Shown here in pieces: positions 19,322 to 64,000 of a stretch of DNA of 64,000 nucleotides. The stretch covers positions 15,129 to 79,128 of the forward strand of contig PWTK01000105.1 in assembly GCA_003563895.1 (NCBI GenBank), read 5' to 3'. This stretch comes from Syntrophomonadaceae bacterium. GTDB taxonomy: Bacteria > Bacillota > Dethiobacteria > DTU022 > UBA8154. The stretch's first letter is position 1. The number at the start of each line of letters is the position of its first letter. The position numbers were made by a program, and so were the translations under genes. The notes beneath the pieces were generated by a model that did no database searches, was not told where the DNA came from, and saw only the letters and a program-made list of their open reading frames with translations.

Positions 19322-19384
19322 CGCATCCTACCCTCCACTATTTTTAAAAAAGCCCGCAAAAACCAGGTCTCTTTATTCTAGAAT

Positions 19385-40866: not shown

Positions 40867-41601
40867 TTACCGATCGGGATGACCCACCGGGATGATTAAC
40901 AGGGGGGTGGCTTCCATTTGCAGGAGCCGGCTGACATTGCGGTCTTCAAAAGCACCCACCACCACGCTGCCCAGCCCTAAAGCCTCGGCCTGCAGGGCAA
41001 TGTTTTGCGATACGTTACCGGATTCCATATGCACGTACCTTTCTCCCCTTTGACCGTACACCCCAGTCGTTCGCTCAAATTCTGCCGCCAGGACGATGCT
41101 GGCGGGAGCCGCAGCGATAAAATCCTGCCCCAGGGCCGCACCTGCCAGCTCCTCCCGCAGTTCGCCTTCCAGGAGCGGAACGAGTTTGTGGTCGGAGATG
41201 TCATAGATGTAGATCCCTGCCTGCATATCCTGTACATTTCCTGCCACCACGTATATCTCCATGGGATGAGTGGCACCGGCCGACGGAGCCGTACGGGTGG
41301 CTCCCGTTATTCCGTCCACACCACTGCCCTGGGCCGCCCAGAGAAGCTGTCCCAGCTGCTGCAGGGAAAGCGGCTTATCCTGGAAACTCCGCGTCGATTT
41401 CCGGATGCTGAGCGTTTCCTCCAGGGATACCTTTCCGACCTCTTCCGGTGCGGGCAGCTCCGTTGGGGGACCTTCGATGTTGTTCGGTGCAGGCCTTTCC
41501 TCAAGATCCTCTGGCGGCGCCGGCCTGCAGGCGGGAACAAAAACCATGGCCGCCAAAACGATAAAGAAAACCGCTGTTTTCAGTTTCGGACCTAAGTTCA
41601 T
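40867..41601 (-). CDS. SagB-type/nitroreductase-family protein with an N-terminal signal/lipoprotein-like sequence
   Basis: 244 aa. Hydrophobic leader ending ...VPAC, followed by a nitroreductase fold. Confidence 0.6.
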   Translation of the reverse strand: MNLGPKLKTAVFFIVLAAMVFVPACRPAPPEDLEERPAPNNIEGPPTELPAPEEVGKVSLEETLSIRKSTRSFQDKPLSLQQLGQLLWAAQGSGVDGITGATRTAPSAGATHPMEIYVVAGNVQDMQAGIYIYDISDHKLVPLLEGELREELAGAALGQDFIAAAPASIVLAAEFERTTGVYGQRGERYVHMESGNVSQNIALQAEALGLGSVVVGAFEDRNVSRLLQMEATPLLIIPVGHPDR

Positions 41602-42999: not shown

Positions 43000-43659
43000 T
43001 TACCCCTCCCACCTCTTCTGCGCGCACTCATTCAATATTTGAAGGGCAGAGCTCGTGCCGATGCGATCTGCGCCTGCTTTAATCAGCTGCTGCGCAAACT
43101 CCGCGGTGCGGATGCCCCCGGAGGCTTTGATGCCCGCTTCCGGTGGAAGCAGCGAGCGCAGCAGCAGAATGTCTTCCAGGGATGCTCCCCGGGGACCAAA
43201 GCCCGTAGATGTTTTCACGTATTTTGCCCCGCCTTCTGCCAGCAGGCGGCAGGCCACAGCGATGTCTTCTTCGTTCAGCAGCCCGGTTTCAATTATTCCC
43301 TTTAGCGGGATGCCGCAGCGGACCACCCCCTTTATCTCTTCCCGGAGCACTTCTTCCTCGCGGTTCTTAAGGGCGGCGATGTTCAGAACCATATCCAGCT
43401 CGTTCGCCCCCTCCTCCACGGCCCTTTTCGCTTCAACCTCCTTCACCTCGGCAAAGGAGCAGCCGAACGGGAATCCCACCACGGTGACCACGTATACCCC
43501 TGTTCCTTTCAAAATATCCCTGGCCAGGGAGACATAATAAGGGTGGATGCACACCCCTTTCAAGCGGTTTTCTCCGGCTTCTTCGCAAAGCTGCCGGATT
43601 TCCTCCTTTGAAGCCGCAGGGTGCAGGAGCGTGGATTCAAGGTACTGCTCCAGTTTCAT
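43000..43659 (-). CDS. deoC: deoxyribose-phosphate aldolase
   Basis: 219 aa, class I aldolase DeoC. Confidence 0.85.
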   Translation of the reverse strand: MKLEQYLESTLLHPAASKEEIRQLCEEAGENRLKGVCIHPYYVSLARDILKGTGVYVVTVVGFPFGCSFAEVKEVEAKRAVEEGANELDMVLNIAALKNREEEVLREEIKGVVRCGIPLKGIIETGLLNEEDIAVACRLLAEGGAKYVKTSTGFGPRGASLEDILLLRSLLPPEAGIKASGGIRTAEFAQQLIKAGADRIGTSSALQILNECAQKRWEG

Positions 43660-43680: not shown

Positions 43681-45102
43681 TTACCCTTCTCCCTTGATAA
43701 CCGCCAGGGGGAAAAGGCGGGCCACTTTTCTGCTGATGTCGATTTCATGCAGCGTTTCCACAACATTATCGATATCCTTGTATGCCAGCGGCGCTTCGTC
43801 CAACAGTTTGCGCTCCTTGGCCCCGTGGAAGAGGATGCCTTTCATTTGTTTTTTCAGCATGCCGGCGTCAAACTGCTTCCTGGCGGCGCGGCGCGAAAGA
43901 ACCCTTCCTGCCCCATGGTTGAGGGAATAAAAAGATTTTTCTGCCTGGGAACCGCCAGTAACCACATAGGAAGAGGTGCCCATGCTGCCGGGAATAATGA
44001 CGGGATGACCGGTTTCCCTGTAAGGGGGCGGGTTTTTTTCGTGCCCCGGCGGGAGCGCCCTGGTTGCCCCTTTTCTGTGTACCAGCAGGTCCTTTCCTTC
44101 AATGCGCTCAAATTTGGCGATGTTGTGGGAAACGTCGTAAACAATTCCCAGGCCCAACTCCTGATCGTCTCGACCAAACTTTTCGGCAAAGGCTTTCCGG
44201 ACATCGTAAGTGATCAGCTGCCGGTTTGAATAAGAAAAGTTCATCGCCGCCAGCATGGCCCCCAGGTAATCCCGGCCTTCGGGCGAGTCAATGGGAACCG
44301 CGGCCAATCCCTTCGAAGGGAGCTCTATCCCGTATCGGGCGGCGGCTTTTTCCATGATCTGCGAGTAATCGGTACAGATCTGGTGGCCAAAGCCTCTGCT
44401 TCCGGTATGGATGAGCAGCGTCAGCATCCCTTCGACAAGTCCAAAGGTCGAAGCAGCTTCCCTGTCGAAGATTTCCGCCACCTCGCCCAGCTCGATAAAG
44501 TGATTTCCGCCTCCGATGGTGGAAAGCTGGTTCCCCCTTTCCCGGCCTTCCTTGCTGACCTTGCCCAGATCGGCCCCGGCAAACGACCCTCCTTCCTCCA
44601 CGTAAAGGGAATCCTCGGAGCGGGCAAAGCCCATTTCAACGAGCGCTTTCATCCCCGTTTCAATTATTTCCTTGAACTGCTTTTTGGTAAAGTGATGGTA
44701 GCGGCTGCTTTTACCGACCCCAGTGGGGACGCGGGAAGTGATCCCCCTCATCAGTTCCCTGAAATCTTCACCGGAGAGCTTGGCTGCCTCGATCTCGGTG
44801 CGCAGAAGACGTACGCCGCAGTTGATATCCATGCCGACCGCTCCCGCGGATATCAGGCCTTTTGAGGCATCCATGGCCATTACGCCTCCTATGGGGAGGC
44901 CAAACCCGGCATGGATATCGGGCATCCCTACCACGTAGCGGTAAACACCAGGCAGCGAAGCGGCGTCGACCAGCTGTTTCAAAGATTCCTCTTCCACAAA
45001 AGAGCGGTAGAGGAAATCGTTGAGGTAGACCAGGGCATCGACCTTCATCCGACCGCTGCGCGGAATCATATAGCAATTTTTCCCGTAAGGCACCAGTTTC
45101 AT
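43681..45102 (-). CDS. rtcB: RNA-splicing ligase RtcB
   Basis: The start was trimmed to MKLVPYGKN. Conserved RtcB metal-site histidines are present. Confidence 0.9.
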   Translation of the reverse strand: MKLVPYGKNCYMIPRSGRMKVDALVYLNDFLYRSFVEEESLKQLVDAASLPGVYRYVVGMPDIHAGFGLPIGGVMAMDASKGLISAGAVGMDINCGVRLLRTEIEAAKLSGEDFRELMRGITSRVPTGVGKSSRYHHFTKKQFKEIIETGMKALVEMGFARSEDSLYVEEGGSFAGADLGKVSKEGRERGNQLSTIGGGNHFIELGEVAEIFDREAASTFGLVEGMLTLLIHTGSRGFGHQICTDYSQIMEKAAARYGIELPSKGLAAVPIDSPEGRDYLGAMLAAMNFSYSNRQLITYDVRKAFAEKFGRDDQELGLGIVYDVSHNIAKFERIEGKDLLVHRKGATRALPPGHEKNPPPYRETGHPVIIPGSMGTSSYVVTGGSQAEKSFYSLNHGAGRVLSRRAARKQFDAGMLKKQMKGILFHGAKERKLLDEAPLAYKDIDNVVETLHEIDISRKVARLFPLAVIKGEG

Positions 45103-45597
45103 GTTCCTGCACCCTTCCCGTGAATGCTCCAACGACAGTGGGGCGGGCAAAAGTCTCACATCAGCCCCCGCGAAACCTGGTGGCGGTCGGTTTTCCCGAG
45201 CATTCGAAGCCCCGCGGACAGGCCAAAGTGCAGTTCCAGCTTCCGACCCGAAAGATATTTTCACGATTCTAATACGCATAATTTCATGAATGGTCTATTC
45301 GATTATTTCGTTAAAGCCTTCGCCAAACCCTTCTGCTTTGAGACAAATAATTCTGACATTTGACCGGGAGTTGGCCCACCCCGCCACTTACCCCTACAGC
45401 TGGCGTGAGGATCCACTGCAGGCCGCCGGGGTCCAACCTGTAAAAAGGTCGCCTTTCCAAACCGACAGCAAACTTACAGCAGCAGCACGGTCCATTCCGC
45501 TACAGGCGGCAGAGATAAAAGGAGGATTTTCTGAAATCATTGTTGAAAGAATTAAATTAAAAGGTTCTCCGGGTTTTTGCTGAACGAATTAAATTAT

Positions 45598-45750
45598 CAG
45601 ACTATCGGGTTTGCTCAGGATGACAATGAAAGAAGCCCCGCAAAAAAGAGGTTTTTAAAGGTCACACTTACAAAAAGGCCTTGATCTGCTAAAAAGCTGT
45701 ATTTTGGGGGCCACTCAACAAGAATTCCCTGAGTTTAGTTGATAATCATG
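45598..45750 (+). mobile_element. MITE-like repeat, copy F (153 bp)
   Basis: Flanks TTAAATTAT and TTAAAATAA match at 7 of 9 positions. It sits in the divergent rtcB / mtaD promoter region. Confidence 0.85.
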
Positions 45751-45857
45751 TTAAAATAAAAAGAACCTGCCGGGTTTTGCTGGATTTGTTTGAAAACGTG
45801 TTCTCGAAAGACAAGCTGTCTGGCCGAGAGAACGGCCAGGGAACAGGGTAAAGGAGG

Positions 45858-47159
45858 ATGCCTGTGACTTCCAGAATTTTAATTAGAGGTGCCACAATAG
45901 TCACTATGAATGAAGACGAAGAAGTTTTTGGTCCCGGAGATCTTTTGATTGAAGACGACGCCATCCGGTCCATCGCTCCCGAGATTACTGTGCAAGAGGA
46001 GAAGGTGACGATTATTCCGGGTGAGGGAAAGGTTGCCATCCCCGGGTTAATCAATACCCATAACCACGCCGCCATGAGCCTTTTCCGCAGCTATGCCGAC
46101 GATTTGCCTCTCCGCGATTGGTTGGAAAACAAAATATTTCCTGCAGAAGCAAAATTGACGGGAAACGATGTGTACTGGGGCACCTCACTGGCCCTTCTGG
46201 AAATGCTGAGAGGTGGAACGACAACCTTTGTCGATATGTACTACCACATGGATGAGGTGGCCCGGGCCTGCCTGGAAAGCGGCGTCAGGGCGGTGCTTTC
46301 TCACGGGATCGTTGGCATCAACAGCCTTTTGGGACACAAGACCTTTCAGGGCGCCACGAACTTTGCCCGAAAGTGGAACAATGAGGGAAATGGGAGAATT
46401 AAAGCCATCCTCGGGCCGCATGCCCCCTATACCTGTCCCCCGGAGTTTTTAAAAAAAGTGTTGAAAAAAACAGAGCAGTTCAATACCACCTTTCACATCC
46501 ATCTCGCAGAGTCCCGGCAGGAAATGCAGGACTCCCTGGATAAATACCAAAAAACACCTGTGGGGTTAATGCAGGAGATAGGCCTCTTCGAAAGAGCCGT
46601 GCTGGCCGCCCACTGTGTGCATCTCACGGAAGAGGACATCGACATACTGGTTTCACGGGAGGTCGGAATTTCGCACAACCCGGGCAGCAACCTCAAATTG
46701 GGCAGCGGGATTGCCCCTTTGACAGAATTGCTGAACAGAAACGCCAGGTTAGGCCTCGGTACAGACGGAGCTGCCAGCAATAATAACCTGGACATGTTTG
46801 AAGAAATAAGGCTTGCCAGCCTTTTGCAGAAAGGATATCGCGAAGATCCCACCTTAATTTCAGCAAACGAGGCATTGGGAATGGCGACCCGGGGAGGCGC
46901 TAGGGCGCTGGGCATGGAGTACATTGGGGTTTTGAAAGAAGGAGCCAAGGCGGACCTCGCTCTGCTCGATTTTCAAAAACCCCACCTCCAACCTCATGCC
47001 GATCCGGTGGCCCATATCGTCTATTCCGCCTCTGCCGGTGATGTGGAAACCGTCATCGTGGATGGCAAAATACTGGTCGAAAAAGGGGTTTGTCAAACAC
47101 TGGACGAGGAGAAAATATTGTTTGAGGCAGCCCGGAGCGCAGAGAGACTCAGGCACTGA
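45858..47159 (+). CDS. mtaD: 5'-methylthioadenosine / S-adenosylhomocysteine (5'-deoxyadenosine) deaminase, MtaD/DadD type
   Basis: 433 aa amidohydrolase. HNHAAMSLFR metal motif and N-terminal LIRGATIVTMNE, typical of the MtaD family. Confidence 0.85.
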   Translation: MPVTSRILIRGATIVTMNEDEEVFGPGDLLIEDDAIRSIAPEITVQEEKVTIIPGEGKVAIPGLINTHNHAAMSLFRSYADDLPLRDWLENKIFPAEAKLTGNDVYWGTSLALLEMLRGGTTTFVDMYYHMDEVARACLESGVRAVLSHGIVGINSLLGHKTFQGATNFARKWNNEGNGRIKAILGPHAPYTCPPEFLKKVLKKTEQFNTTFHIHLAESRQEMQDSLDKYQKTPVGLMQEIGLFERAVLAAHCVHLTEEDIDILVSREVGISHNPGSNLKLGSGIAPLTELLNRNARLGLGTDGAASNNNLDMFEEIRLASLLQKGYREDPTLISANEALGMATRGGARALGMEYIGVLKEGAKADLALLDFQKPHLQPHADPVAHIVYSASAGDVETVIVDGKILVEKGVCQTLDEEKILFEAARSAERLRH

Positions 47160-47280
47160 AGCGCCAAAAAGGAAAATAGCCGGGGGATAAAAGCCCCCGG
47201 CTTTTTTGCAGGACATGTTTTAGGCGTGTTCAAGCGGCATTGTATTTGGGGATCTTTGGGGATCGATGTCCTTAATGCCC

Positions 47281-47392
47281 TAGTGCTCCAAAACATAATT
47301 ACGGTGACGTTTTTTTACACGAAAAGCCTCAACTTTTGCCTGAAAATCATTGTTTCTAACAGATCACATTCGGAACAATATTTGTGTTAGGA
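47281..47392. repeat. conserved ~110-bp intergenic element, copy 1 (paired with 56541-56655)
   Basis: About 75 % identical to a block downstream of the LysM gene, including the shared core CCTGAAAnTCATTG...AACAGrTCACATTCGGAAC. Confidence 0.5.
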
Positions 47393-47397
47393 AGCAC

Positions 47398-48846
<1,449 letters not shown>

Positions 48847-48965
48847 TATTCTTCTTAATCCCTCCTGAGTAATATATGCAGGTTAGCTTCCTGCTTGATG
48901 ATAATACAGGGCCGGTCAGCGTAAGCCGAACCAATGGCAGCGACCGGCCCTTAAATGTCTCGCTG

Positions 48966-49985
48966 TTAAACGGTTTGCCAGTGCCCCTCTTTGATGGCTT
49001 TTCGTATTTCCTGGATGGTCTGCGCGTCAAATTGGGCCCCGGTTTGCCTGACGATCTGTGCGGCAATATATGAAGCGATCCGTCCGGCATCGGCGATGGA
49101 GTAGCCCTTTAACAGGGCATATAAAAAGCCAGCTGCGTAATTGTCTCCGGCTCCCGTGGTATCCACGGCATCGACGGGGTAAGCATTTACCGGATTGCAT
49201 CGGGTTTCTTTGTCTTCATTGAAAGCGATGCAGGAACCGTCGGCACAATTTTTTACCGCCGCAATTTCGCATTGTTTAACCAATTCCCTGGCAGCTTCTT
49301 CGGGGTCATCAATCCCCAACAGCAAACGCGCTTCCTCGGAATTGGCCAACACCACATCGACGCTTTTCCTGATGAGTTCGATGAAGTCCTTGTAATGCCT
49401 CTCTACTGCGAAGGGATCGGCCACATCGAATACGACTTTTGTCCCGTTTTTGCGTGCCGTTTCAATTGCATCCGTAAGCGCCTGCTTTTGGTTTTCGGTG
49501 TCCCACATGTATCCCGTAAAGTACAGGAAATCAGCTCCGGCGATTTTTTCGTGTTTTACATTCTCGGGGCTGAAATTCCGGCAAACCCCGAGTCTTGTGC
49601 ACATCGTCCGTTCGTGATCCGGGGTGACAAGGACAATGCAGCTGCCGGTATCTCCTCCATCGAAGACCAGATCGGATATCACTTTTTGGGCCTGCAGGCG
49701 TTGGCGGTATATATCGCCGAGCTCATCATTTCCGACTTTTCCCGCAAGGGCGGCACGGACACCCAGGGAGGCAAGCGTGATCATGGTATTTGGAGCGGAT
49801 CCGCCGCAAGAATATTTTTTTTCCCGATCTTTGATGCGCTCCAGGATGTAATTGCCGCGTTCGGTCTCGATGAGCTCCATGGTACCTTTTTTCAGCCCGA
49901 GCTCTTCTATTTCACTGTCGCTCACCTGTGTAAGCACATCGATCAAAGGATTTCCAATCCCGTATATATCTACTCTCTCGCTCAT
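48966..49985 (-). CDS. PfkB-family carbohydrate/nucleoside kinase, probably adenosine kinase
   Basis: Start trimmed to MSERVDIYGIGNPLIDVL, preceded by RBS GGGAGG. Carries the PfkB motifs GAGDNYAAGF. The adenosine-kinase call is from genomic context. Confidence 0.7.
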   Translation of the reverse strand: MSERVDIYGIGNPLIDVLTQVSDSEIEELGLKKGTMELIETERGNYILERIKDREKKYSCGGSAPNTMITLASLGVRAALAGKVGNDELGDIYRQRLQAQKVISDLVFDGGDTGSCIVLVTPDHERTMCTRLGVCRNFSPENVKHEKIAGADFLYFTGYMWDTENQKQALTDAIETARKNGTKVVFDVADPFAVERHYKDFIELIRKSVDVVLANSEEARLLLGIDDPEEAARELVKQCEIAAVKNCADGSCIAFNEDKETRCNPVNAYPVDAVDTTGAGDNYAAGFLYALLKGYSIADAGRIASYIAAQIVRQTGAQFDAQTIQEIRKAIKEGHWQTV

Positions 49986-50276
49986 ACTGCCTCCCATAAA
50001 AAAATCTCCTTCGGAAACATATTTGGTCCCTTGTTCGGGCAGCCCCGCCGGCACCCCGAAAAGGGACCCGGTCGGGTTCGGCATCCATTTGCAGCCGGTT
50101 CCTGTTTTCCAGGGAAAAGCGGCTGCAGCGCCCTGCCGCTTCCGACAGCTATATATTATATCACCTGCAGCATGCCGAGTCAAGTTTTACGAACAAAAGT
50201 TCTGTATTATTATTGGGGAAAACAACAGTACGCTTTAATGAACCTTGCGTGCTAATCCTGCGAGGTATTGACAGGG

Positions 50277-51068
50277 CTAGATCCCCCAATCGATTTTTTG
50301 CAATTCTTCCAGCAGTTGGTAATTGGTCAGATCAAACTGGATGGGGGTAACGGAAATGTAGGATTTTTTGACCGCCGCCACATCGGTATCCTCGCCGTCT
50401 TCTTCCCTGGACGAGTCGACCAGTTCTCCGGCCAGCCAGTAATAGTTTTTCCCGCGGGGATCGATTCTCTTTTGGAACGTGTTGCGATAGTGGCGGAGGC
50501 CGAGGCGAGTGACGGCCACCCCCCCTATCTCGCGGCGCGATTTGTCAGGGACATTGATGTTCAGCAGCGTATCGGGGGGGAGCCCGTGTTCGCAGATGCA
50601 GCGCAGCGTCCTCAACATAAAGTTGGCGGCAAAGCGGAAATCGGGGTGCTTGCTCTCATCAAAGGGCAGCACAAGAGAAACAGCCATGGCCGGTATGCCG
50701 AGGATAATTGCTTCGATGGCGGCCGAAACGGTGCCCGAGTAAAGCACATCGGTGCCAATGTTGGCCCCCCGGTTAATTCCCGAAATTACCAGGTCCGGTT
50801 TTTGGGGCAGCAGGTATTCTATTGCCAGTTTAACACAATCTGAAGGGGTTCCATTGACGGCCCACCCCTTCAGTTCCGTATTATGGAAAAAACGGGCCTC
50901 CTCGGCACGCAGGGGCCTGTGCATGGTGATGGCGTGTCCCGTAGCGCTGCGCTCGTGGTCGGGAGCAACAATGTAGAGTTCCACCTCTTCGTCCTGCAGC
51001 AGTGCCTCACCGAGCATTTGGATCCCCTCGGCATAAATGCCGTCATCGTTGGTCAGTAATACAATCAA
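50277..51068 (-). CDS. surE: 5'/3'-nucleotidase SurE
   Basis: 263 aa; N-terminal MIVLLTNDDGIYAEGI. Confidence 0.9.
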   Translation of the reverse strand: MIVLLTNDDGIYAEGIQMLGEALLQDEEVELYIVAPDHERSATGHAITMHRPLRAEEARFFHNTELKGWAVNGTPSDCVKLAIEYLLPQKPDLVISGINRGANIGTDVLYSGTVSAAIEAIILGIPAMAVSLVLPFDESKHPDFRFAANFMLRTLRCICEHGLPPDTLLNINVPDKSRREIGGVAVTRLGLRHYRNTFQKRIDPRGKNYYWLAGELVDSSREEDGEDTDVAAVKKSYISVTPIQFDLTNYQLLEELQKIDWGI

Positions 51069-51372
51069 TCATATCCCTCCACATAGATTCGAAATAGTCC
51101 GGCCCCCTCTCTTTCGCTGCCGTATTCCGGAAGAGGGCTCCTGATAAGCCGGGAGGCAAAAGCCGGGCACACTTGGCCCGCCGGGAGCCCTTTCAGGGAC
51201 TCGAAAGAAAGGTCTGAAGCGGTTGAGCCAATATTTTCCCGCAGCTCAGAAACAACAGGGTGCCGGCTTCTCCGGGCTGAGAAGTTTCGGGGGCCTCCCT
51301 TCGCTTAAAACCCTGAAATCCATCGCGGCGTTCGCCCCTGCACAAGCCGGGGTCCCCCGGGAAATGCGGCGC

Positions 51373-52026
51373 TCATTCCTCCTGGCCGTAATGCTTGAGG
51401 AAAAGATCGCGCAATTTGCTTGTTTCCCCGTTTGAGAGAAGAAAAGGATCGCCAAGCAGTGTCGACCAGAGCAATATTTCGGCGCTTCGCTCAATAACCC
51501 GGGCCCTCAGCAGGGCCTCAGCAAGGGAAGCACCAACACAGACCGTCCCGTGGTTGGCCAGCAAAACGGCGAAACCGCTCTTTCCCAATGCCCTGGAGGC
51601 ATGTACAGCGAGCTCTTGACTGCCGGGGAAGGCGTACTCGGCTGCCGGCACACTGCCTCCAAACAGCTGGGCCATCTCTTCCGTAGCCGGTGCAATCTCC
51701 CTCCTTGCCACGGCAAATGCGGTGGCATACTTGCTGTGGGTATGAATAATGGCCTTTACGTCTTCACGGGCTTTATAGATCTCCAGGTGCAGGGGAAGCT
51801 CCGTGGAGGGCTTCCAGCGGCCCTCCTCTACTACACCGTCCAGGTTTAGCACGATCATGTCAGCGGGCTGCAAATCTTCATAAGGGATGCCGCTGGGTGT
51901 AATCACCGTCCTGTCCTTTTCCGGTCGGCAGCTGAGGTTCCCCCAGGTACTGAAGCACAACCCTTCTCTGCTTACAATATGCGCAAAGTTCACCACTTCC
52001 TCCCTGGCCTTTTCAACTCCCTTCAC
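51373..52026 (-). CDS. class II aldolase/adducin-family protein (MtnB-like / DHAP-shunt 5-deoxyribulose-1-P aldolase candidate)
   Basis: 217 aa with metal-binding His residues (HTHS...H). Its stop overlaps the mtnA start. Confidence 0.75.
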   Translation of the reverse strand: MKGVEKAREEVVNFAHIVSREGLCFSTWGNLSCRPEKDRTVITPSGIPYEDLQPADMIVLNLDGVVEEGRWKPSTELPLHLEIYKAREDVKAIIHTHSKYATAFAVARREIAPATEEMAQLFGGSVPAAEYAFPGSQELAVHASRALGKSGFAVLLANHGTVCVGASLAEALLRARVIERSAEILLWSTLLGDPFLLSNGETSKLRDLFLKHYGQEE

Positions 52027-53111
52027 CCTCGCTGCACCCCGCCTTCAAACATCCGGATGAGCTTCTTTTCATTCGGCGAAAAGATGACCCCTTTTTCGGT
52101 GATGACGGCCGTGATCAACCCGGCGGGGGTTACATCAAAAGCCGGGTTCCGGGCGGAAGCGCCTTCCGGCGCCAGCCTGCGCCCCCCCAGGGAAAGCACC
52201 TCTTTTCCATCGCGCTCTTCTATCTCAATGTCCCATCCCGTCCCGGCGGAAAGATCCACGGTGGACAGCGGGGCTGCTACATAAAAGGGGATATTGTGTT
52301 CCCCGGCCAGCAGGGCCAGCGGGTAGGTGCCGATTTTGTTGGCCGCGTCCCCGTTGGCTGCGACGCGGTCGGCGCCGGTAATGATCCCGTCTACCTCACC
52401 CCGGCTGATAAAAAAGCCGGCCGCCCCGTCTGCAATAAGCTGCACCGGGATCCCTTCTTTTTGCAGTTCCCAGCAGGTGAGGCGGGAACCCTGGAGCAGC
52501 GGTCGGGTTTCACCGGCCAGGACGTTTTTAACCCTCCCCTGCTGAAAGGCGCTGCGGATCACGCCCAGGGCAGTGCCGTAACCGGCAGTTGCCAGGGCGC
52601 CGGCATTGCAGTGGGTTAGCAGGGTGCTCCCTTCTGCGATAAGCGCCGCACCGTTGGCGCCGATTTGTTTGTTGGTCTCGATGTCTTCCTCATAGATCCC
52701 CAGCGCCTCGGCTTCCAGGAGCTGCAGCACCGTCCCGGTTGGCGCTCTTTTGGCTTCCGAGAGTTTCCGCAGCATCCGATCCACACCCCAGGACAGATTT
52801 ACCGCAGTGGGGCGGGAAGCCTTCAATTTAGTGCCGGCCTCCTCCATGGCCTGCCAGAACCCTTCCTGCGGGGCATTATCTTCCTCCAGGTTAACGGGAA
52901 GTCGATCAAGGTAGTTCCGGGCCGCCAGCACCATGCCAAAGGCGGCAGACACGCCGATAGCCGGAGCACCCCTGACAACCATGTCCTTGATACAGTCACG
53001 CAGCTCGTCCGGGGTGCTGCAGGCCAGGTATCGCTCTTCTTCAGGCAAAAGCCGCTGATCGAGAAGTTTCAGCACACCGTCCTCCCAGATGATGGGACGG
53101 ATTTCTTCCAT
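52023..53111 (-). CDS. mtnA: S-methyl-5-thioribose-1-phosphate isomerase
   Basis: 362 aa, eIF2B-like fold (MtnA). Confidence 0.9.
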   Translation of the reverse strand: MEEIRPIIWEDGVLKLLDQRLLPEEERYLACSTPDELRDCIKDMVVRGAPAIGVSAAFGMVLAARNYLDRLPVNLEEDNAPQEGFWQAMEEAGTKLKASRPTAVNLSWGVDRMLRKLSEAKRAPTGTVLQLLEAEALGIYEEDIETNKQIGANGAALIAEGSTLLTHCNAGALATAGYGTALGVIRSAFQQGRVKNVLAGETRPLLQGSRLTCWELQKEGIPVQLIADGAAGFFISRGEVDGIITGADRVAANGDAANKIGTYPLALLAGEHNIPFYVAAPLSTVDLSAGTGWDIEIEERDGKEVLSLGGRRLAPEGASARNPAFDVTPAGLITAVITEKGVIFSPNEKKLIRMFEGGVQRG

Positions 53112-53142
53112 CTCTCATGCCTCCCACCGGGAATGTTTCGGG

Positions 53143-53934
53143 CTATTCCTCCAGGGTAATATCTTCCTTTTCCCAGCAACTGCAGCTTCGTGTCTGCGGA
53201 AGAACTGCCAGCACTTCCAGGAACAATTCCCTGATCAGGTTGATTTTTTCCTTGACCACGTCGATCACTTCTCTATGGGTTAACGGGTGCGGGGAGATTC
53301 CGGCGGCCAGGTTGGTCACCATCGAGAGGGTGGCGTAGCAGAGGCCCGCTTCCCGGGCCAGGGTGACTTCCGGCACACTGGTCATTCCCACCACGTCCGC
53401 CCCCCAGCTGCTGAAGGCCTGTATTTCAGCAGGCGTTTCGTAACGCGGGCCTTCCGTGCAGATATACGTGCCCCCGTTTACGAAGGGAATTCCTTTCCCG
53501 CCCAGGACGTTGCTGAGATGATTCCTCAACTGAGGACAGTAGGGCTCAGTGAAATCCGTGTGATATACCGGGCCGTCATCCCCGTCGTAAAAGGTGTGTT
53601 GGCGATTCCTGGTCAGATCAATGAACTGGTCGACAATGACCAGGGTTCCCTGGGTAATGCTTTCCTTTATTGAGCCCACGGCCGTGGTGGAAAGGATCCG
53701 CTGGATGCCCAGTTCCTTCAAAGCAGCGATGTTTGCCCGGTAGTTCACCCTGTGGGGAGGCAGCTGATGGCGGTCGCCGTGACGCGGCATAAAGGCCACG
53801 GTTTTATCTCCATATGTGCCGATGATCATTTTTGCCCTGCCGTATTTTGTGTCCAGGGTCATTTCACGGGAATCTTCCAGCAGCCGGGGGTGGTAATACC
53901 CTGTTCCCCCTATAATTGCCAGGTTAACGTCCAT
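53143..53934 (-). CDS. mtnP: S-methyl-5'-thioadenosine phosphorylase
   Basis: PNP/MTAP family. Start trimmed to MDVNLAIIGGTGYY. Confidence 0.85.
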   Translation of the reverse strand: MDVNLAIIGGTGYYHPRLLEDSREMTLDTKYGRAKMIIGTYGDKTVAFMPRHGDRHQLPPHRVNYRANIAALKELGIQRILSTTAVGSIKESITQGTLVIVDQFIDLTRNRQHTFYDGDDGPVYHTDFTEPYCPQLRNHLSNVLGGKGIPFVNGGTYICTEGPRYETPAEIQAFSSWGADVVGMTSVPEVTLAREAGLCYATLSMVTNLAAGISPHPLTHREVIDVVKEKINLIRELFLEVLAVLPQTRSCSCWEKEDITLEE

Positions 53935-53993
53935 GTTTCCAAAATCCTTCGATTTGTTGAGCAGGGGTCCCCCTCCTTTCTCCTCTGAATTGG

Positions 53994-55241
53994 TCAGTCT
54001 ATCTCCCAACTATCCAGGTACGCCTTCTGCTCGTCGGTGAGGCGGTCAATTTCAATATTCATCGCTTTCAGCTTCAGCTTGGCCACCTCGCTGTCCAGGT
54101 CCTGGGGGACAGGCAGGACCCTGTTGGCCAGTTCTCCCCTGTTGTCCAGCAGATATTTCAAAGCCAGGACCTGGAGCGCAAAGGACATGTCCATGATCTC
54201 TGCAGGGTGCCCATCAGCAGCGGCCAGGTTCACCAGCCGGCCTTCACCCAGCAGGTAAAGGCGGCGGCCGTCGGGAAGCGCATATGCGTCTACGTCTTTT
54301 CTGACACGCCTGTAACCGCCGCTCAGGGCGACCAGGGCTTCTTTGTCGATTTCCACATCAAAGTGCCCCGCGTTGGAAAGCACGGCCTGGTCTTTCATTG
54401 CTTCAAAATGCTCCCTGGTGAGAACTTTGCTGCACCCCGTGACGGTTACGAAAAAATCGCCTGCTGATGCGGCCTTTTGGAGCGGCATTACCTCGAAACC
54501 GTCCATGTGTGCTTCCAGGGACTTGATCGGGTCAACTTCACATACGATCACCCTTGCTCCCAACCCCCTCGCCCTCATGGCCACCCCTTTGCCGCACCAG
54601 CCGTAGCCGATAACGACCACATCTTTTCCCGCCACAATGAGGTTGGTGGCTCGCATAATTCCATCCCAGGTAGACTGCCCTGTTCCGTAGCGATTATCAA
54701 AAAGGTGCTTGCATAGGGCATCGTTCACCGCCATCACGGGAAAGCCCAGCACCCCTTCTTTCTCCATGGCCCGCAGCCGTATCAGGCCGGTGGTCGTCTC
54801 CTCTGAACCCCCGATTATGCGGGGCAGCTGCTCCCGGTATTTTGTGTGTATGAAAGAAACCAGATCTCCGCCGTCATCGATGAGAAGCTCCGGGGAAAAA
54901 TTGGCAGCCTTCTCCAGGTGCTCCCGGTATTCCTCCCTGGTTGCATTGTACCAGGCGTGCACCTCCAGGCCCTCTTCGACCAGGGCGGAAGCAACGTCAT
55001 CCTGCGTTGAAAGAGGATTGCTTCCCGTAACGACCACCCCGGCACCGGCTTCTTTTAACACCCGGCACATGTAGGCCGTTTTTGCTTCCAGGTGAAGGCA
55101 AACGGCAATACGTAAACCCCGAAAGGGCGTGCTCTTTCGAAATGACTCTTCCAAACCCTTTAACACCGGCATGTGTTCACGGACCCAATCCATTTTTTCC
55201 TTTCCCTGCGGCGCCAGGCTTCTTTCTCTAATAGAACTCAA
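53994..55241 (-). CDS. second adenosylhomocysteinase paralog, short archaeal type (S-inosyl-homocysteine hydrolase candidate)
   Basis: 415 aa, SAHH fold without the bacterial insertion. It is encoded next to mtnP and near the mtaD-like deaminase. Confidence 0.8.
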   Translation of the reverse strand: MSSIRERSLAPQGKEKMDWVREHMPVLKGLEESFRKSTPFRGLRIAVCLHLEAKTAYMCRVLKEAGAGVVVTGSNPLSTQDDVASALVEEGLEVHAWYNATREEYREHLEKAANFSPELLIDDGGDLVSFIHTKYREQLPRIIGGSEETTTGLIRLRAMEKEGVLGFPVMAVNDALCKHLFDNRYGTGQSTWDGIMRATNLIVAGKDVVVIGYGWCGKGVAMRARGLGARVIVCEVDPIKSLEAHMDGFEVMPLQKAASAGDFFVTVTGCSKVLTREHFEAMKDQAVLSNAGHFDVEIDKEALVALSGGYRRVRKDVDAYALPDGRRLYLLGEGRLVNLAAADGHPAEIMDMSFALQVLALKYLLDNRGELANRVLPVPQDLDSEVAKLKLKAMNIEIDRLTDEQKAYLDSWEID

Positions 55242-55640
55242 AGCAAGCCTCTCCTTCAGACTCTTGCGGAGCCTCGTGGATCTGATTTAACGCTTGATTT
55301 ATCAAGATTAATAATACTTCGAGAAAGCCCCGGAAAACTCCTGCCAACCTTATTCTCAAGCCATACAAAAAGGCCCCCAAAGGGGGCAAAAGGCCGATTT
55401 TTTCGGAAACAGCTGAGTGACTAAAAACCGTACCACAGCCGGATCCTTAAAGAATTCCGGGGCTGTGAAAAAGTTATATCGTTTTTGCTCAAAGACTTTG
55501 CAACTGAGGGTCCAGCTCTTTTTCAGTCAGCATCTCGCTGAAAACGTCTGCACCGATATTTCAACAGGATCGGCTGCGGGGCCGGTTAAACCTGCACGGC
55601 TCTTCTGGGTCTCCCGCTGCAGCTGTCTTCAGCGTTTCGC

Positions 55641-56237
55641 TTATTTTTTTGCTTCGTCGAGGCGGGCGTTTACATCCTCCCAGTTGACCAGGTTCCACCA
55701 GGCCTCGATAAAGGCGGCCTTCTTGTTTTGATACTGCAGGTAATAGGCATGCTCCCAGAGATCGAGGACCAACAGGGGAATTGCCCCCCACTGGGTCAGG
55801 TTCTGATGCTTTTCCGACGTGAGGATTTCCAGCTTGTCAAACTGGGGGTTCCAGCAGAGCAGGGTCCAACCCGAGCCTTCCACGGCCGCCGCGGCGGCGG
55901 TAAACTGCTCTTTAAAGGCGGGAAAGCCCCTGAAATCGGCTTTGATCTGTTGGGCAACGGCTCCTTCTGCCGGTCCCCCGCCTTCAGGCTTCATATTGGT
56001 CCAGAAGATGCTGTGCAGGATGTGCCCGGAGCCGTGAAAGGCGAGCTCTCTTTCCCAGTGCTTGACCAGGGAGAAGTCATTGTTTTCCCGAGCCTCAACC
56101 AATTTGGCTTCGGCCTTGTTCAAACCGTCAACGTAGGCCTTATGGTGCGCGTCGTGATGCAGGCGGAGGGTCCGTTCCTCGTAATAGGGTTCCAGGGCAT
56201 CATACGCATAGGGCAGATCAGGAAGCTCATGTTTCAT
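55641..56237 (-). CDS. sodA: Fe/Mn superoxide dismutase
   Basis: 198 aa; DLWEHAYY signature. Confidence 0.95.
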   Translation of the reverse strand: MKHELPDLPYAYDALEPYYEERTLRLHHDAHHKAYVDGLNKAEAKLVEARENNDFSLVKHWERELAFHGSGHILHSIFWTNMKPEGGGPAEGAVAQQIKADFRGFPAFKEQFTAAAAAVEGSGWTLLCWNPQFDKLEILTSEKHQNLTQWGAIPLLVLDLWEHAYYLQYQNKKAAFIEAWWNLVNWEDVNARLDEAKK

Positions 56238-56540
56238 TTGCGATCAACCTCCCAGAGATAGGATAATACCATTATAGCATACCTCGTGCCTGCCTGAAAC
56301 ATCTATCGGCAGCCCCTGGCGCGCAGGCGCTCACAGCAGCAGTCGCGACAAGGCGCCGCAGCAGTACACAATAATTATGCGCACCCGGACGGCAGGGAAA
56401 ACCGGCACACAGTTTAAATCTGCCAAGCGGTTGATGGGCAGCAGAAAACAGGAAGAGCAGAACACACCAGCGATACACATGGCGAAAAAAAGGGTTTATG
56501 CAGTCTCCTTTGGGAGCAAGCCATAAACCCTTCCATTCCG

Positions 56541-57936: not shown

Positions 57937-57964
57937 CGGGAGCCACAAGCCCTTATTTTATGCT

Positions 57965-58049
57965 GGTGCGAGAGAAGGGATTTGAACCCCCACGGGCTAC
58001 TGCCCACTAGGTCCTGAACCTAGCGCGTCTGCCTTTCCGCCACTCTCGC
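57965..58049 (-). tRNA. tRNA-Leu (CAG)
   Basis: Minus-strand sense GCGAGAGTGGCGGAAAGGC...CTAGGTTCAGGACCTAG...long variable arm...CTCTCGCACCA. Anticodon loop TTCAGGA. Confidence 0.85.
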
Positions 58050-58052
58050 ACG

Positions 58053-58128
58053 TGGTGAGCCATCCAGGACTCGAACCTGGGACACCCGGATTAAAAGTCC
58101 GGTGCTCTTCCAACTGAGCTAATGGCCC
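58053..58128 (-). tRNA. tRNA-Lys (TTT)
   Basis: Minus-strand sense GGGCCATTAGCTCAGTTGGAAGAGCACCGGACTTTTAATCCGG...GGATGGCTCACCA. Confidence 0.9.
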
Positions 58129-58172
58129 GTCTATTGAGGCAAGGGGTGAAGCCCCTTCCCTGGACATGGTTG

Positions 58173-58260
58173 TGGTGGAGAGGACTGGATTTGAACCAGT
58201 GAAGGCGCACGCCAGCAGATTTACAGTCTGCCCCCTTTGGCCAAACTTGGGTACCTCTCC
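58173..58260 (-). tRNA. tRNA-Tyr (GTA)
   Basis: Minus-strand sense GGAGAGGTACCCAAGTTTGGCCAAAGGGGGCAGACTGTAAATCTGC...long variable arm...CTCTCCACCA. Confidence 0.85.
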
Positions 58261-60662: not shown

Positions 60663-61454
60663 TTATTTTGCCGCCTTTTCGTTCTCCTTTTTGACCTTTT
60701 CCCTGCGGAAGGTATACCAGCTGCCCAGCATGCCTGCCACCAGCCCAGCCATGGCAAGCGTCTTCAGGGGGCGCATTGCCACTTTCCAGAGGTGAGTGGT
60801 GTAAGACACGGTCGGGCTCACAGGGAGGCCGTACATATCGGGGCTGTCAGCAAGCACGTAGATTACCCCCATGCCGCCCAGCTCATCCACGCCGTAAAGC
60901 TGGGCATTGGCAACGCCTCTTTCCTGCAGCTCGGCTACCCGCGCTTCCGCTTCGGCGATTTTTTCATCAGCTGTGCCAAATGTTACTGCTCCTGAAGGGC
61001 AGGCCTTGGAACAGGCCGTGGCATAACCGGCCGCCACGCGGTGCAGGCAGAAGTTGCACTTGTAGGCCTTTTCATCAACCTCTGGGCCCCTCGGGATTTC
61101 GAAGGGGCAGGCGCCGGTGCAGGCACCGCAGGCGATGCACTCTTCATGGTTGATGATAACGGCGCCTGTATCGGTCCGGCTGATGGCATCTACGGGGCAG
61201 ATTTCCATGCAGCCCGCTTCCGTACAGTGCATGCAGGAGAAGAAGTTAAAGTACCACTTCACTTCACCATTGTTTGCGTGCTCGTTGAACTTGACGCGAC
61301 TCCAGGTAACAAAATCTAAGTCGGCGGGATTCTCATAGGAGCCTGTAAATTCGGTTTCCACTGCAGGCAGCTGGTTCCACTGCTTGCATGCCACCTGGCA
61401 GCCCTTACAGGCCATACACTTGGTTACATCTATCAACCTAACATTATTTGCCAT
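60663..61454 (-). CDS. fdnH: formate dehydrogenase-N-type iron-sulfur (beta) subunit with a C-terminal membrane anchor
   Basis: 263 aa. Four ferredoxin-type Cys clusters and one C-terminal transmembrane helix. Its stop is immediately adjacent to the alpha-subunit stop codon region (61455). Confidence 0.8.
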   Translation of the reverse strand: MANNVRLIDVTKCMACKGCQVACKQWNQLPAVETEFTGSYENPADLDFVTWSRVKFNEHANNGEVKWYFNFFSCMHCTEAGCMEICPVDAISRTDTGAVIINHEECIACGACTGACPFEIPRGPEVDEKAYKCNFCLHRVAAGYATACSKACPSGAVTFGTADEKIAEAEARVAELQERGVANAQLYGVDELGGMGVIYVLADSPDMYGLPVSPTVSYTTHLWKVAMRPLKTLAMAGLVAGMLGSWYTFRREKVKKENEKAAK

Positions 61455-64000
61455 TTAGCCCGCCCTCCTTATATTGCAGATAAACGACTTGAACTCCGGA
61501 ATGGTTGTGTTGGCACAACCGATGGTGGGGGTCAGGTCATTGGCGGAAGCTCCGCTGGAAAGACCCTTGAAACCCCAGTGCCAGGGCATACCTACGATTT
61601 CCTTCTCCTCGCCGTTAATCATCAAAGGCTTAACGCGCGGAGTCACTGCTACTTTACACTGAATGGTGCCTCTTTTGCTCTCAATCTCCACCATGTCGCC
61701 GTTTTCAACCCCGATTTCTGCAGCCAGGGAGGGGCTGATTTCACAGAACATTTCCGGCATCGCTTCGACCAACCAGGGGTTGTTCCGGGTCATAATCCCG
61801 GTCTGGTAGTGCTCTGTCAGGCGGTATGTGGTGGCGATGTACGGATAGTCCGCGCTTTCCCCCCGGTCTTCAGGGTACCATACCTTACAGACAGGGTTGA
61901 ACTGCACATCAGACATCCTGTTGGCAGTTATGCTCTCCCAGGGCTCGTAGTGCTCGGGGAAGGGGCCGTCTACCATGGTTCCAGTTAACCCTGCAAATAA
62001 TCTTGACTGCAGTTCCGGGGTCATGATGAAGGGTTTATCGGCTGTTTCTTCCGGGGGTACGTTGGCATTAAAATCAGGAACGTCTATTGTTACCCATTCA
62101 TTGTCTTCCCACCTGAACAGCGCCTTGTCAGGGTTCCAGGGGTTCCCTTCTGCATCACAGGAGCAGCGGTTGTAGACGATTCTGCGGTTGGCGGGCCAGG
62201 CGAATGACCAGTCATGGTTGAGGCCGAGGCCTTCTGTTTCCCTGGTGCGGTTCTTGCAGGCAGGGTCGGCCTCGTCCGCATAGAAACCGGTATAAATCCA
62301 GCTCCCAGCAGCCACTTCGCCGTCATCACTTCCGGTAATGTCGCCAAATCCAGTAGCCAGCTCGCCGGTGTCCCAGTAGAACCCGTTGATCTCCATGCAT
62401 ACTTTGGGAATATCCACTTCGTCGTCGCCGTAATCCCAGTACATGTCCACGATGGGTCCGGGGAATGCTCCGCCTTCTTCTTCGTAGAGGTTCCTGATTG
62501 CATGGAAGAGTTGGTTGACAATCCAGTAGTCCGGCTTGGCCTCCCCGGGAGGATCCTGGGCTTTGTGTCTCCACTGGATCCAGCGGCCGGAGTTGGTAAT
62601 GGTGCCTTCTTTTTCAAAGTGCATGCAGGCAGGCAGCAGGAACACTTCCGTGTCTACTTCTTCGGGGTTCATATCGGGAGCTTTCCAGAAGGCTGCCGTT
62701 TCATTTTCATAAATGTCAGCGCAAACCAGCCAATCCAGCTCCGCCTGGGCCCTGCGCTTTCTTATGGTATTGGCTCCACCCACCACCGGGTTGTCGGCAA
62801 AGCAGAACAGGCCTTTGATTTCCCCCTTGGCCATATAGGTGTAATAGGCAACAGACGAGCGGTTTTTGTCCAGCCGGGGCAGGTAATCAAAGTGGAAGTC
62901 GTTTTCTTCTGTGGCATTGTCACCCCAGAACGCTTTCAGCATCGAGGCCATAAACTTCGGTCGGTTGACCCAGTACCCGGAATCTGGTGCAGCAGCGTTA
63001 TAGGCTGCCAAATCCTGCCCATCACTGGGCATGGGCATATACCCGGTTACGATATGGAAGAGCTGGCCCATATCGCAAGCGCCCTGCACGTTGGACTGGC
63101 CCCGCTGGGCGTTCACACCGCCACCGGCGATGCCAACATTGCCCAGCAGCAGCTGAAGGATGGCGCAGCTGCGCACGTTTTGTGAACCGTGGGTAAACTG
63201 GGTAAGTCCCATGGCGTAGGAGATATTTCCGGCTTTGCCGGGTTCACCGGTGCTGCAGAACATCTCTGCCACTTCCACGAACTTGTCCTCGGGGCAGCCG
63301 GTGATTTCGCTGACGGTCTGCACGTTGTAGCGGGCATAGTGATTCTTGAACAGCTGCCACACGCAGTTGGAATCCTGCAGGGTTTCATCTTTTAAGATAT
63401 TGCCCTCTTCATCCCTCTGGTAGTCCCAGCTTGTCCTGTCGTAGGACTTCTGCCCGTCACCGAGGTCCGGTGCATCCTGAACGCCGGTGAACAACCCGTC
63501 GCTGTAACCAAAATCAGGGTTGATTAAACTGGAGGCATTGGTGAACAGTTTTACATACTCTTCATGATACTTGTTGTTTTCAATGGCATAGTTGATCAAC
63601 CCGGAGAAAAACGCTACATTGGTGCCGGGACGGATTGGCGCATACAGGTCGGAAACAGCAGAAGTGCGGGTGAAGCGGGGGTCCACTGAAATCAGCTTGG
63701 CACCGTTGTCCAGAGCCGCTTGAATCCACTTCATGGAAATGGGGTGGTTCTCAACGGTGTTTCCACCGATGTTCATGATTACATCGGAGTTGCGGTAATC
63801 GATCCAGTGGTTGGTCATAACGCCTCTACCAAATGAGTTGCCCAAACCTTGGACAGTTGAGGAGTGTCACAACCGGGCGCAGTGGTCCATATTGACAATG
63901 CCATTGGCGGCAACAAACTTTCTAAAGAGATAGTTCTCTTCGTTATTGCACATGGCACTGCCCACCCAGGCCAGGGCTTCGCAGCGGTTCGCCACCAGCC
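61455..64000 (-). CDS. fdnG: selenocysteine-containing molybdopterin formate dehydrogenase alpha subunit (FdnG/FdoG-like); N-terminus lies beyond the window
   Basis: The 796-aa track ORF starts at a TTG, but the frame stays open upstream through an in-frame TGA (63867-63869). The surrounding translation ...[29 protein letters not shown]...VDPRFTRT matches the Sec region of FdnG/FdhF-type enzymes (recalled motif ARV-U-HGPTV...FGRGAMTNHW). Confidence 0.85.
63867..63869 (-). other. in-frame UGA selenocysteine codon of fdnG
   Basis: Its position aligns with the catalytic Sec of formate dehydrogenases. A candidate SECIS hairpin GUCCAA-GGU-UUGGGC begins about 13 nt downstream. Confidence 0.7.

Follow-up and report, generated by a model that had tools for sequence, protein, structure and literature searches.

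SAH (S-adenosyl-L-homocysteine), MTA (5′-methylthioadenosine) and 5′-deoxyadenosine inhibit methyltransferases as well as radical-SAM enzymes, and the removal of these nucleoside by-products of S-adenosylmethionine (SAM) is therefore a necessity for every cell. Why, then, should one bacterium encode two different adenosylhomocysteinases (AhcY) for this task within a few kilobases of each other? The question is raised by contig PWTK01000105.1 of a Syntrophomonadaceae bacterium, in which a 9.4-kb locus carries both enzymes together with a deaminase of the MtaD type, a PfkB-family kinase, the nucleotidase SurE, a phosphorylase of the 5′-methylthioadenosine phosphorylase (MTAP) family (here MtnP), the isomerase MtnA and a class II aldolase (here Ald2). 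An original prediction, made from the DNA letters, described this locus as a consolidated salvage cluster that may run both a direct and a deaminated route of SAH breakdown. Here we examine it within the 64-kb stretch of the contig that surrounds it (64,000 nucleotides (nt); hereafter the window) and among its relatives. At a probability of roughly 0.6, we propose that it encodes a two-branch system for the disposal and salvage of SAM-derived nucleosides: an ancestral operon that would work on hypoxanthine nucleosides supplied by the deaminase, and a separately transcribed kinase–AhcY unit of different evolutionary history that would keep the adenine ring.

Genes were identified by open reading frame (ORF) listing and by NCBIfam and Pfam profile searches (Table 1). 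All eight lie within the 9.4 kb where they had been placed and bear the right names. The same genes occur in the same order in at least two other genomes (L083/L084 and L085/L086) at 55–88% amino-acid (aa) identity, which argues that the clustering is not due to chance, and sub-arrangements of the locus are found again in many further loci.

The two AhcY paralogs carry different specificity motifs. In the 415-aa protein (short AhcY) the sequence H-L-E-A-K (...CLHLEAKTAY...) forms an HxExK motif identical to that of MmaSIHH; the 482-aa protein (long AhcY) has H-M-T-I-Q, an HxTxQ motif of the SAH type. Koeppl et al. (2024) tested 18 AhcY enzymes: all six HxExK enzymes (from M. jannaschii, M. infernus, M. 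maripaludis, P. furiosus, T. kodakarensis and T. maritima) prefer S-inosyl-homocysteine (SIH) and inosine, all tested HxTxE/Q enzymes prefer SAH, and in crystal structures the motif Glu touches N1 and the Lys touches O6 of hypoxanthine (PMC10978960). The specificity residues of the short AhcY, which the original prediction had singled out for inspection, are thus of the HxExK kind and not the adenosine-specific ones. In the Protein Data Bank (PDB) this protein matches PfuSAHH (7r37, 538 bits) and the M. maripaludis SIH hydrolase (7r3a, 522 bits) ahead of the SAH-specific Sulfolobus enzyme (471 bits) and the mammalian enzymes (about 339 bits). It aligns with PfuSAHH end to end and ungapped, with no 40-aa insertion and a short C terminus, and its catalytic motifs (DDGGD, SEETTTG, KHLFDNRYG, NAGHFD and DGHP) and NAD motifs are all intact. 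The gene has a TTG start with the ribosome-binding site (RBS) GAAGGAGAGG ahead of it.

The top PDB match of the long AhcY is 6uk3 (715 bits), of the insertion-bearing bacterial and eukaryotic type; its alignment to mammalian SAH hydrolase (SAHH) splits into two stretches around the insertion segment, and the C-terminal KPAHYRY tail is present. A neighbour-joining (NJ) tree places the paralogs in deeply separated clades, the short one in a Bacillota clade apart from ordinary SAHHs and beside the SIH-preferring Pyrococcus and Methanococcus enzymes. Motifs, structure matches and tree therefore agree with the earlier description of a canonical 482-aa and an archaeal-type 415-aa paralog. We predict that the short AhcY is a SIH-preferring hydrolase and that the long one, on its fingerprint and its score above the TIGR00936 cutoff, is a canonical S-adenosyl-L-homocysteine hydrolase.

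The HxExK enzyme is widespread among related bacteria. We counted its occurrence in the 80 best short-AhcY loci (L001–L080) and its neighbours in the 62 of these that are flanked on each side by 3 kb or more. The motif reads HLEAK in 80/80. The nearest loci, at 67–73% identity, come from Bacillota metagenome-assembled genomes (MAGs), a Dethiobacter sp. MAG and a 'Syntrophomonadaceae' MAG, and the 80 include Lachnospiraceae, Oscillospiraceae, Ruminococcus, Moorella, Pelotomaculum, Thermincola, Sporomusa and two Bacteroidales-labelled MAGs. In 32 of the 62 the short AhcY has MtaD within 1.5 kb, and in L001–L004 the two share an operon. By these counts the HxExK type is evidently the ordinary AhcY of this part of Bacillota, habitually paired with a deaminase, and for these bacteria, most of them mesophilic, having both the SIH-type hydrolase and the deaminase seems to be the rule.

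A second specificity signal comes from the phosphorylase. In its superfamily, specificity for 6-amino or for 6-oxo purines classically turns on a change from Asp to Asn at the base-contact position. Residues T207-N208-L209-A210 of the window enzyme align with T219-D220-Y221-D222 of human MTAP, in which Thr219, Asp220 and Asp222 hold the purine (PMC5738077); the human sequence used agrees in its length and in nine numbered residues with the list in that paper. The segment mvtNlAAGiS shares the pattern N-x-A-A-G-x-S with lvvNpAAGkS of PaMTIP (3ozb), the 5′-methylthioinosine (MTI) phosphorylase of P. aeruginosa, whereas archaeal MTAPs in the PDB have TDYD. The curated MTI phosphorylase and MTAP models are both passed (Table 1), and by overall score the archaeal MTAP 2a8y (215 bits) lies ahead of PaMTIP (184.5 bits). 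Among the relatives that we fetched, all phosphorylases linked to such loci (23/23) have TN.(A/G)(A/S)G, and an Asn-type phosphorylase lies within 2.5 kb of the short AhcY in 12/62 loci. We predict that the enzyme is of the 6-oxopurine type, a phosphorylase of 5′-methylthioinosine and 5′-deoxyinosine.

The dihydroxyacetone phosphate (DHAP) shunt has been described in two variants, one using a nucleosidase and a kinase and the other using the phosphorylase MtnP on adenine nucleosides (PMC10986504). Here, the shunt probably runs on deaminated nucleosides: given an Asn-type phosphorylase, the operon seems built throughout for such substrates, and the deaminase would be an obligatory first step for 5′-deoxyadenosine and MTA as well.

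The genes for short AhcY, MtnP, MtnA and Ald2 are co-directional, separated by gaps of 60 and 31 nt and then by a 4-nt overlap of the aldolase start with the mtnA stop, an arrangement indicating translational coupling. They look like one operon, so that the aldolase–MtnA–MtnP operon originally recognized gains the short AhcY as its first gene. The MtnP–MtnA–aldolase order is kept in L001, L002, L004, L083 and L085. The top solved match of the aldolase is DrdA (6btd, 120.8 bits), the 5-deoxyribulose-1-phosphate aldolase of Bacillus thuringiensis (PMC6079011), and the His-x-His, His and Glu metal and catalytic residues align with those of DrdA. An identity as the dehydratase MtnB was rejected (TIGR03328, 76.7 against a cutoff of 137; NF006672, 71 against 226). 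We predict a 5-deoxyribulose-1-phosphate or methylthioribulose-1-phosphate aldolase of the Ald2/DrdA kind, a reading taken from context: the overlap with mtnA, the position kept in relatives and the lack of fucose genes or any sugar-catabolic setting nearby.

The second branch is formed by PfkB and the long AhcY. The kinase contains DTTGAGDNYAAGF, corresponding to the DTxGAGD motif. It had been put forward as a candidate adenosine kinase, and its nearest solved structures are indeed adenosine kinases, first the bacterial ones (3ubo and 4e3a, both about 1e-56) and then eukaryotic ones, with ribokinases at about 1e-13; no NCBIfam equivalog cutoff is reached. The gene is always a neighbour of the long AhcY, sitting immediately upstream of it in the window as in more than ten related loci, and we predict that it encodes an adenosine kinase. 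Kinases of methylthioribose (MTR) and 5-deoxyribose belong to the MtnK family, and with adenosine kinases as the nearest structures that identity was rejected; inosine kinase is a possible identity with a much weaker match (6vwo, 1.3e-15).

The transcription layout was deduced from consensus scans, which point to separate transcription of PfkB–long AhcY and the operon. A strong σ70-like promoter site precedes PfkB (Table 1), and a site resembling it is also present in L085. Where the MtaD and long AhcY genes converge lies a bidirectional terminator-like hairpin, and another terminator-like hairpin, downstream of a SOD gene, precedes the short AhcY. No riboswitch was found by Rfam (gathering threshold for the whole window; E ≤ 1 for 45000–56500), which returned tRNAs and one chance match; the roughly 160-nt PfkB leader (49998–50155) has no Rfam match and shows no sequence conservation across six related loci. 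SurE follows the aldolase after 304 nt (51069–51372), a spacer of 36 nt in L083 and 122 nt in L085, which in the window holds a weak terminator-like hairpin (51180–51164). In another arrangement of the locus (type A, below) this is the site of MtaD; tblastn found no MtaD remnant in the spacer, and Rfam gave no match there.

How did the two branches come to lie together? Relatives of the locus show three arrangement types. Type A (L001–L004) is a co-directional series, short AhcY–MtnP–MtnA–Ald2–MtaD–SurE–DeoC, with no long AhcY nearby; L003 is without an aldolase match and L001 without DeoC, a deoxyribose-phosphate aldolase. Type B (the window, L083/L084, L085/L086 and the fragment L096) runs short AhcY–MtnP–MtnA–Ald2–SurE–(RtcB)–PfkB–long AhcY, with a convergent MtaD and, in the window and L085/L086, DeoC. 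Type C (L081/L082, L087/L088, L095 and L098) has PfkB–long AhcY, a convergent MtaD and MtnP–MtnA–SurE–RtcB, with no short AhcY and no aldolase. Other gene orders occur in L094, L099 and L100, and L089 has PfkB–long AhcY–MtaD alone.

We compared these types using identity tables and NJ trees, for which bootstrap values were computed and Sporomusa served as outgroup. Types A and B group together for MtnP (100% bootstrap), MtnA (84%), SurE (98%) and the concatenated proteins (100%), whereas MtaD groups types B and C (100%). Because the trees are discordant in this way, the MtaD of the window shares its history with the PfkB–long AhcY unit and not with the operon. We read the locus as a mosaic, in which a PfkB–long AhcY unit and a convergent MtaD of separate ancestry have been set into an ancestral operon locus; the co-location that suggested a consolidated cluster is real, and what changes is the account of how it was assembled. 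Base composition gives no sign of a recent transfer of the PfkB–AhcY–MtaD segment (GC content 0.52–0.53; whole window, about 0.53).

Relatives of the long AhcY at 75–78% identity lie in MetK–(PfkB)–AhcY–GSMT–SDMT–(MTHFR) glycine-betaine clusters, and those at 73% or less in ordinary MetK–AhcY pairs. In two soda-lake relatives (L090:5735–12040 and L091:4123–9082), genes for de novo glycine-betaine synthesis are paired with SAM-recycling genes of their own. GSMT in the betaine clusters scores above its NCBIfam cutoff, and the SDMT-like gene is a best match below cutoff. We sought GSMT, SDMT, MetK and MTHFR in the window and in the type B and type C loci and found none of them there, so an osmolyte link in this organism stays conjecture.

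From these gene identities, motif states, operon layout, cross-genome conservation and discordant phylogenies we infer the substrate preferences of all the enzymes and the operation of both SAH routes in the cell. In the first branch, MtaD would deaminate 5′-deoxyadenosine, MTA and probably SAH to their inosine forms and so supply the ancestral operon. The HxExK hydrolase would convert SIH into inosine and homocysteine, and the Asn-type phosphorylase would split 5′-deoxyinosine or methylthioinosine into hypoxanthine and 5-deoxyribose-1-phosphate or MTR-1-phosphate; MtnA would isomerize these sugar phosphates, from which the aldolase would yield DHAP and acetaldehyde or 2-(methylthio)acetaldehyde. 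In the second branch, the long AhcY would cleave SAH directly to adenosine and homocysteine, and PfkB would rephosphorylate the adenosine to adenosine monophosphate with the adenine ring kept. This would spare the cost of re-aminating inosine monophosphate (IMP), a saving that might conceivably matter at high methylation flux. The earlier suggestion that direct and deaminated SAH routes coexist here finds support in the motifs, the phylogeny and the aldolase context, with the arginines of the deaminase, considered next, as its caveat.

In this organism the deaminated SAH route is least secure at its deaminase. Its membership of the MtaD/DadD group stands: in the PDB it matches 4f0r at 284.5 bits (Cv1032, an MTA/SAH deaminase by its deposited name) and Tm0936 at 268.3 bits, and the equivalents of Tm0936 H55, H57, W75 and E84, covering the metal site and the ribose and base contacts, are kept (segments nthnha, ihlaes, gtdgaasn, dwl and paea). 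Its proposed action on SAH is less secure. Hermann et al. reportedly found in 2007 that Arg136 and Arg148 of Tm0936 bind the homocysteine carboxylate of SAH; in the window MtaD these are His149 and Lys161. Moreover, the protein falls below the cutoffs of the equivalog models NF004701 (510.9 against 609) and NF005557 (5′-deoxyadenosine deaminase; 381.8 against 522) and of the MTA/SAH deaminase model NF012037 (345.6 against 779). For both reasons, SIH may not be made here. Cv1032 likewise lacks both arginines, so the arginine test is not decisive. The first of the two positions is Arg in most Clostridia MtaD proteins that lie beside an HLEAK AhcY, and Gln, His or Glu in the soda-lake lineage. 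We predict deamination of MTA and 5′-deoxyadenosine; that of SAH is uncertain.

Other points also weigh against a two-branch system. HxExK enzymes retain slow SAH turnover (PMC10978960), and SAH could accordingly be a substrate of the short paralog; the HxExK rule is based on six tested enzymes, one of them bacterial. For the aldolase, the score with DrdA exceeds that with S. pneumoniae FucA by no more than a small margin (120.8 against 118.2 bits); the score is compatible with a FucA identity, to which the context lends no support, and no FucA NCBIfam model reaches its cutoff. Our view of the genome is that of the 64-kb window, with Pfs/LuxS, HGPRT and other routes beyond its reach. Finally, type C loci have neither short AhcY nor aldolase in the locus, which fits replacement rather than division of labour.

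This last point leads to the strongest rival, a xenologous displacement under way, which we consider unlikely. Both AhcY proteins would hydrolyse SAH, the acquired long SAHH with its adenosine kinase would be replacing the short enzyme with no meaningful SIH route, and the window would capture an intermediate state in which MtaD serves only MTA and 5′-deoxyadenosine, perhaps also adenosine. The type C loci L081, L087, L095 and L098, which keep PfkB–long AhcY, MtaD, MtnP and MtnA and have no short AhcY in the locus, speak for it; the shared history of the window MtaD with the long-AhcY unit and the residual SAH activity of SIH-preferring enzymes are in keeping with it. Against it, HLEAK is invariant in 80/80 loci and the catalytic motifs are intact, and the two-paralog arrangement has been kept in three genomes diverged to 55–88% identity, arguing for maintained function. 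The missing equivalents of Arg136 and Arg148 also fit displacement, but the type A operons carry the HxExK enzyme only and their MtaD is also without Arg136, so loss of this residue does not track loss of the SIH route; Cv1032, for its part, has neither arginine although it is deposited as an MTA/SAH deaminase.

The two-branch reading takes the substrates to be endogenous. An improbable alternative is a nutrient-scavenging island, which would mainly catabolise exogenous nucleosides and 5′-deoxynucleosides for carbon, sulfur or purines. Extraintestinal strains of E. coli can grow on 5′-deoxynucleosides by means of the DHAP shunt, which they do not need for detoxification (PMC10986504), and SurE and DeoC, which stay with the locus, are general genes of nucleotide and deoxyribose catabolism. 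Against this, no transporter gene lies in or beside the locus, in the window or in its relatives; two hydrolases that release homocysteine, like an adenosine kinase, belong to the methyl cycle, and the wider long-AhcY relatives adjoin MetK. Fortuitous co-location of unrelated housekeeping genes, for which one might cite the varying gene order among relatives and the interspersed or adjacent RtcB and SOD genes with no link to SAM metabolism, is very improbable, given the same functional set, which soda-lake Bacillota show in five or more orders, the recurrence of the core pairs short AhcY + MtaD and MtnP + MtnA across Clostridia and Negativicutes, and the 4-nt overlap of the mtnA and aldolase genes.

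Two start codons were corrected relative to the ORF listing. On the evidence of gene calls on identical or related contigs and of its RBS, PfkB starts with MGGSMSERV... at 49997 and has 343 aa, the listed 405-aa ORF being over-extended; the phosphorylase probably starts with MDVNLAIIGG at 53934 and has 263 aa, as in relatives, rather than filling the 288-aa ORF.

Table 1 Genes and transcription signals of the salvage locus, with positions in the window and scores in bits.
Feature	Position	Strand	Evidence
MtaD/DadD/Tm0936-group amidohydrolase	45858–47159	+	best NCBIfam 510.9, under equivalog cutoffs; PF01979 265
Bidirectional intrinsic-terminator-like hairpin between convergent MtaD and long AhcY	47178–47202	both	9-bp stem, 8 GC pairs, T-runs on both strands
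482-aa adenosylhomocysteinase (long AhcY)	47398–48846	−	TIGR00936 603.8 (cutoff 497.6)
PfkB kinase, 343 aa	48966–49997	−	PF00294 169
Sigma-70-like promoter before PfkB–long AhcY	50183–50155	−	TTGACT-17-TATAAT, 11/12, extended −10 TG; consensus match only
SurE 5′/3′-nucleotidase	50277–51068	−	NF001492 320.5 (cutoff 271)
Class II aldolase (predicted Ald2)	51373–52026	−	PF00596 185
MtnA, 5-methylthioribose-1-P / 5-deoxyribose-1-P isomerase	52023–53111	−	TIGR00512 418.6 (cutoff 279); NF004326 438.4
MTAP-family phosphorylase (MtnP)	53143–53934	−	TIGR01694 (MTAP) 289.7 (cutoff 274.85); NF006599 (MTI phosphorylase) 259.2 (cutoff 223)
415-aa adenosylhomocysteinase homolog (short AhcY)	53994–55241	−	NF004005 674.8
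DeoC deoxyribose-phosphate aldolase, neighbour of the locus, membership uncertain	43000–43659	−	TIGR00126 239.7

All three arrangement types include SurE, and DeoC adjoins SurE or MtaD in L002–L004 and L085/L086; both remain with the salvage locus across several gene orders. One idea is that DeoC would condense aldolase-derived acetaldehyde with glyceraldehyde-3-phosphate. RtcB, an RNA ligase, is a recurrent and functionally unrelated neighbour of SurE in this lineage; its ORF in the window (43681–45279) has 532 aa and those of relatives 473–476 aa, which makes an over-called start probable.

Elsewhere in the window, a MiaB-like radical-SAM methylthiotransferase (UPF0004, Radical_SAM and TRAM domains; 6250–7593) and a second radical-SAM protein (22227–23519) are local examples of enzymes that generate 5′-deoxyadenosine and SAH. 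Proline-biosynthesis-like genes at 16919–20573 encode an aldehyde dehydrogenase/ProA-like protein, a glutamate-5-kinase with a PUA domain and a pyrroline-5-carboxylate reductase; in L085, homologous proB and proC lie downstream of the salvage locus. A co-directional, overlapping trio at 27819–32454 (a gamma-glutamyltranspeptidase, a 723-aa ATP-grasp protein of the D-Ala-D-Ala-ligase type and an N-formylglutamate amidohydrolase family protein) may form a pathway for a peptide or gamma-glutamyl compound. The window also contains a SagB-type dehydrogenase (40867–41601), a cluster of tRNA-Leu, tRNA-Lys and tRNA-Tyr (57964–58260) and a formate-dehydrogenase beta subunit beside a 796-aa ORF (60663–63845).

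Every step of the proposed scheme has a characterised precedent (Tm0936/DadD, SIHH, PaMTIP/MtiP, MtnA, Ald2/DrdA, SAHH and adenosine kinase). What appears to be new is their combination: an operon joining a SIH-type hydrolase to a putative deaminase-first, hypoxanthine-releasing DHAP shunt, which is not among the variants in PMC10986504, and, in the same locus, a predicted canonical SAHH–adenosine kinase unit with an ancestry of its own, which brings the two AhcY motif types together in one bacterium. A broader reading is possible, although we hold it only tentatively. Hypoxanthine-based salvage of all three SAM by-products, through the deaminase, SIH hydrolase, MTI/5′-deoxyinosine phosphorylase, MtnA and aldolase, would be the default in much of Bacillota, including gut Lachnospiraceae and Oscillospiraceae, instead of an oddity of hyperthermophiles, and a third entry to the DHAP shunt; soda-lake lineages would repeatedly have wired in an adenine-conserving SAHH–adenosine kinase unit, with one cell running both SAH routes, perhaps for high methylation flux.

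A 2026 review of SAHHs describes HxExK as characteristic of T. maritima and Euryarchaeota and has the two motifs excluding each other across species (PMC13406329). Here both motifs occur 5 kb apart in one bacterium, and the HxExK type is general in Bacillota; if our reading holds, the SIH route extends beyond extremophiles. The DHAP shunt would gain a third, deaminase-first entry; types A, B and C would amount to a natural experiment on IMP re-amination versus keeping the adenine ring; and thousands of Bacillota annotations as 'adenosylhomocysteinase' or 'MTA phosphorylase' may name the wrong substrate.

Several known systems resemble parts of the locus. The soda-lake MetK–(PfkB)–AhcY–GSMT–SDMT–(MTHFR) clusters contain an AhcY 75–78% identical to the long AhcY and, in L090, the same PfkB–AhcY pair. 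The halophilic methanogens Methanohalobium evestigatum and Methanohalophilus halophilus likewise combine a bacterial-like, insertion-bearing, SAH-preferring SAHH with isoforms of other predicted substrate (PMC10978960); these are archaea, whereas the paralogs of the window lie 5 kb apart in a bacterium, along with their partner enzymes. The closest counterparts of the deaminated SAH route are those of M. jannaschii (DadD MJ1541, SIHH MJ1388) and T. maritima (Tm0936, TmSAHH), which share a short HxExK AhcY without the 40-aa insertion and an amidohydrolase of the Tm0936/DadD group, in the window encoded in the same locus. The host differs, being a soda-lake-type and probably mesophilic member of Bacillota; the deaminase is without the equivalents of Tm0936 Arg136 and Arg148; and the hydrolase heads an MtnP–MtnA–aldolase operon, with an HxTxQ SAHH and a predicted adenosine kinase alongside. 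The MTI pathways of P. aeruginosa (PA3170 with PA3004/PaMTIP) and M. jannaschii (MtiP) share deamination before phosphorolysis, here a predicted order, and the replacement of TDYD by N-x-A-A-G-x-S, but the products in the window would pass to MtnA and an aldolase rather than into full methionine salvage or 6-deoxy-5-ketofructose-1-phosphate (DKFP) synthesis. Finally, in comparison with the DHAP shunt and 5-deoxyribose disposal, which use MtnP or Pfs + MtnK with MtnA and Ald2, or DrdK–DrdI–DrdA, the window holds an apparent third variant, deaminase-first and hypoxanthine-releasing, whose operon is transcriptionally joined to a SIH-type hydrolase.

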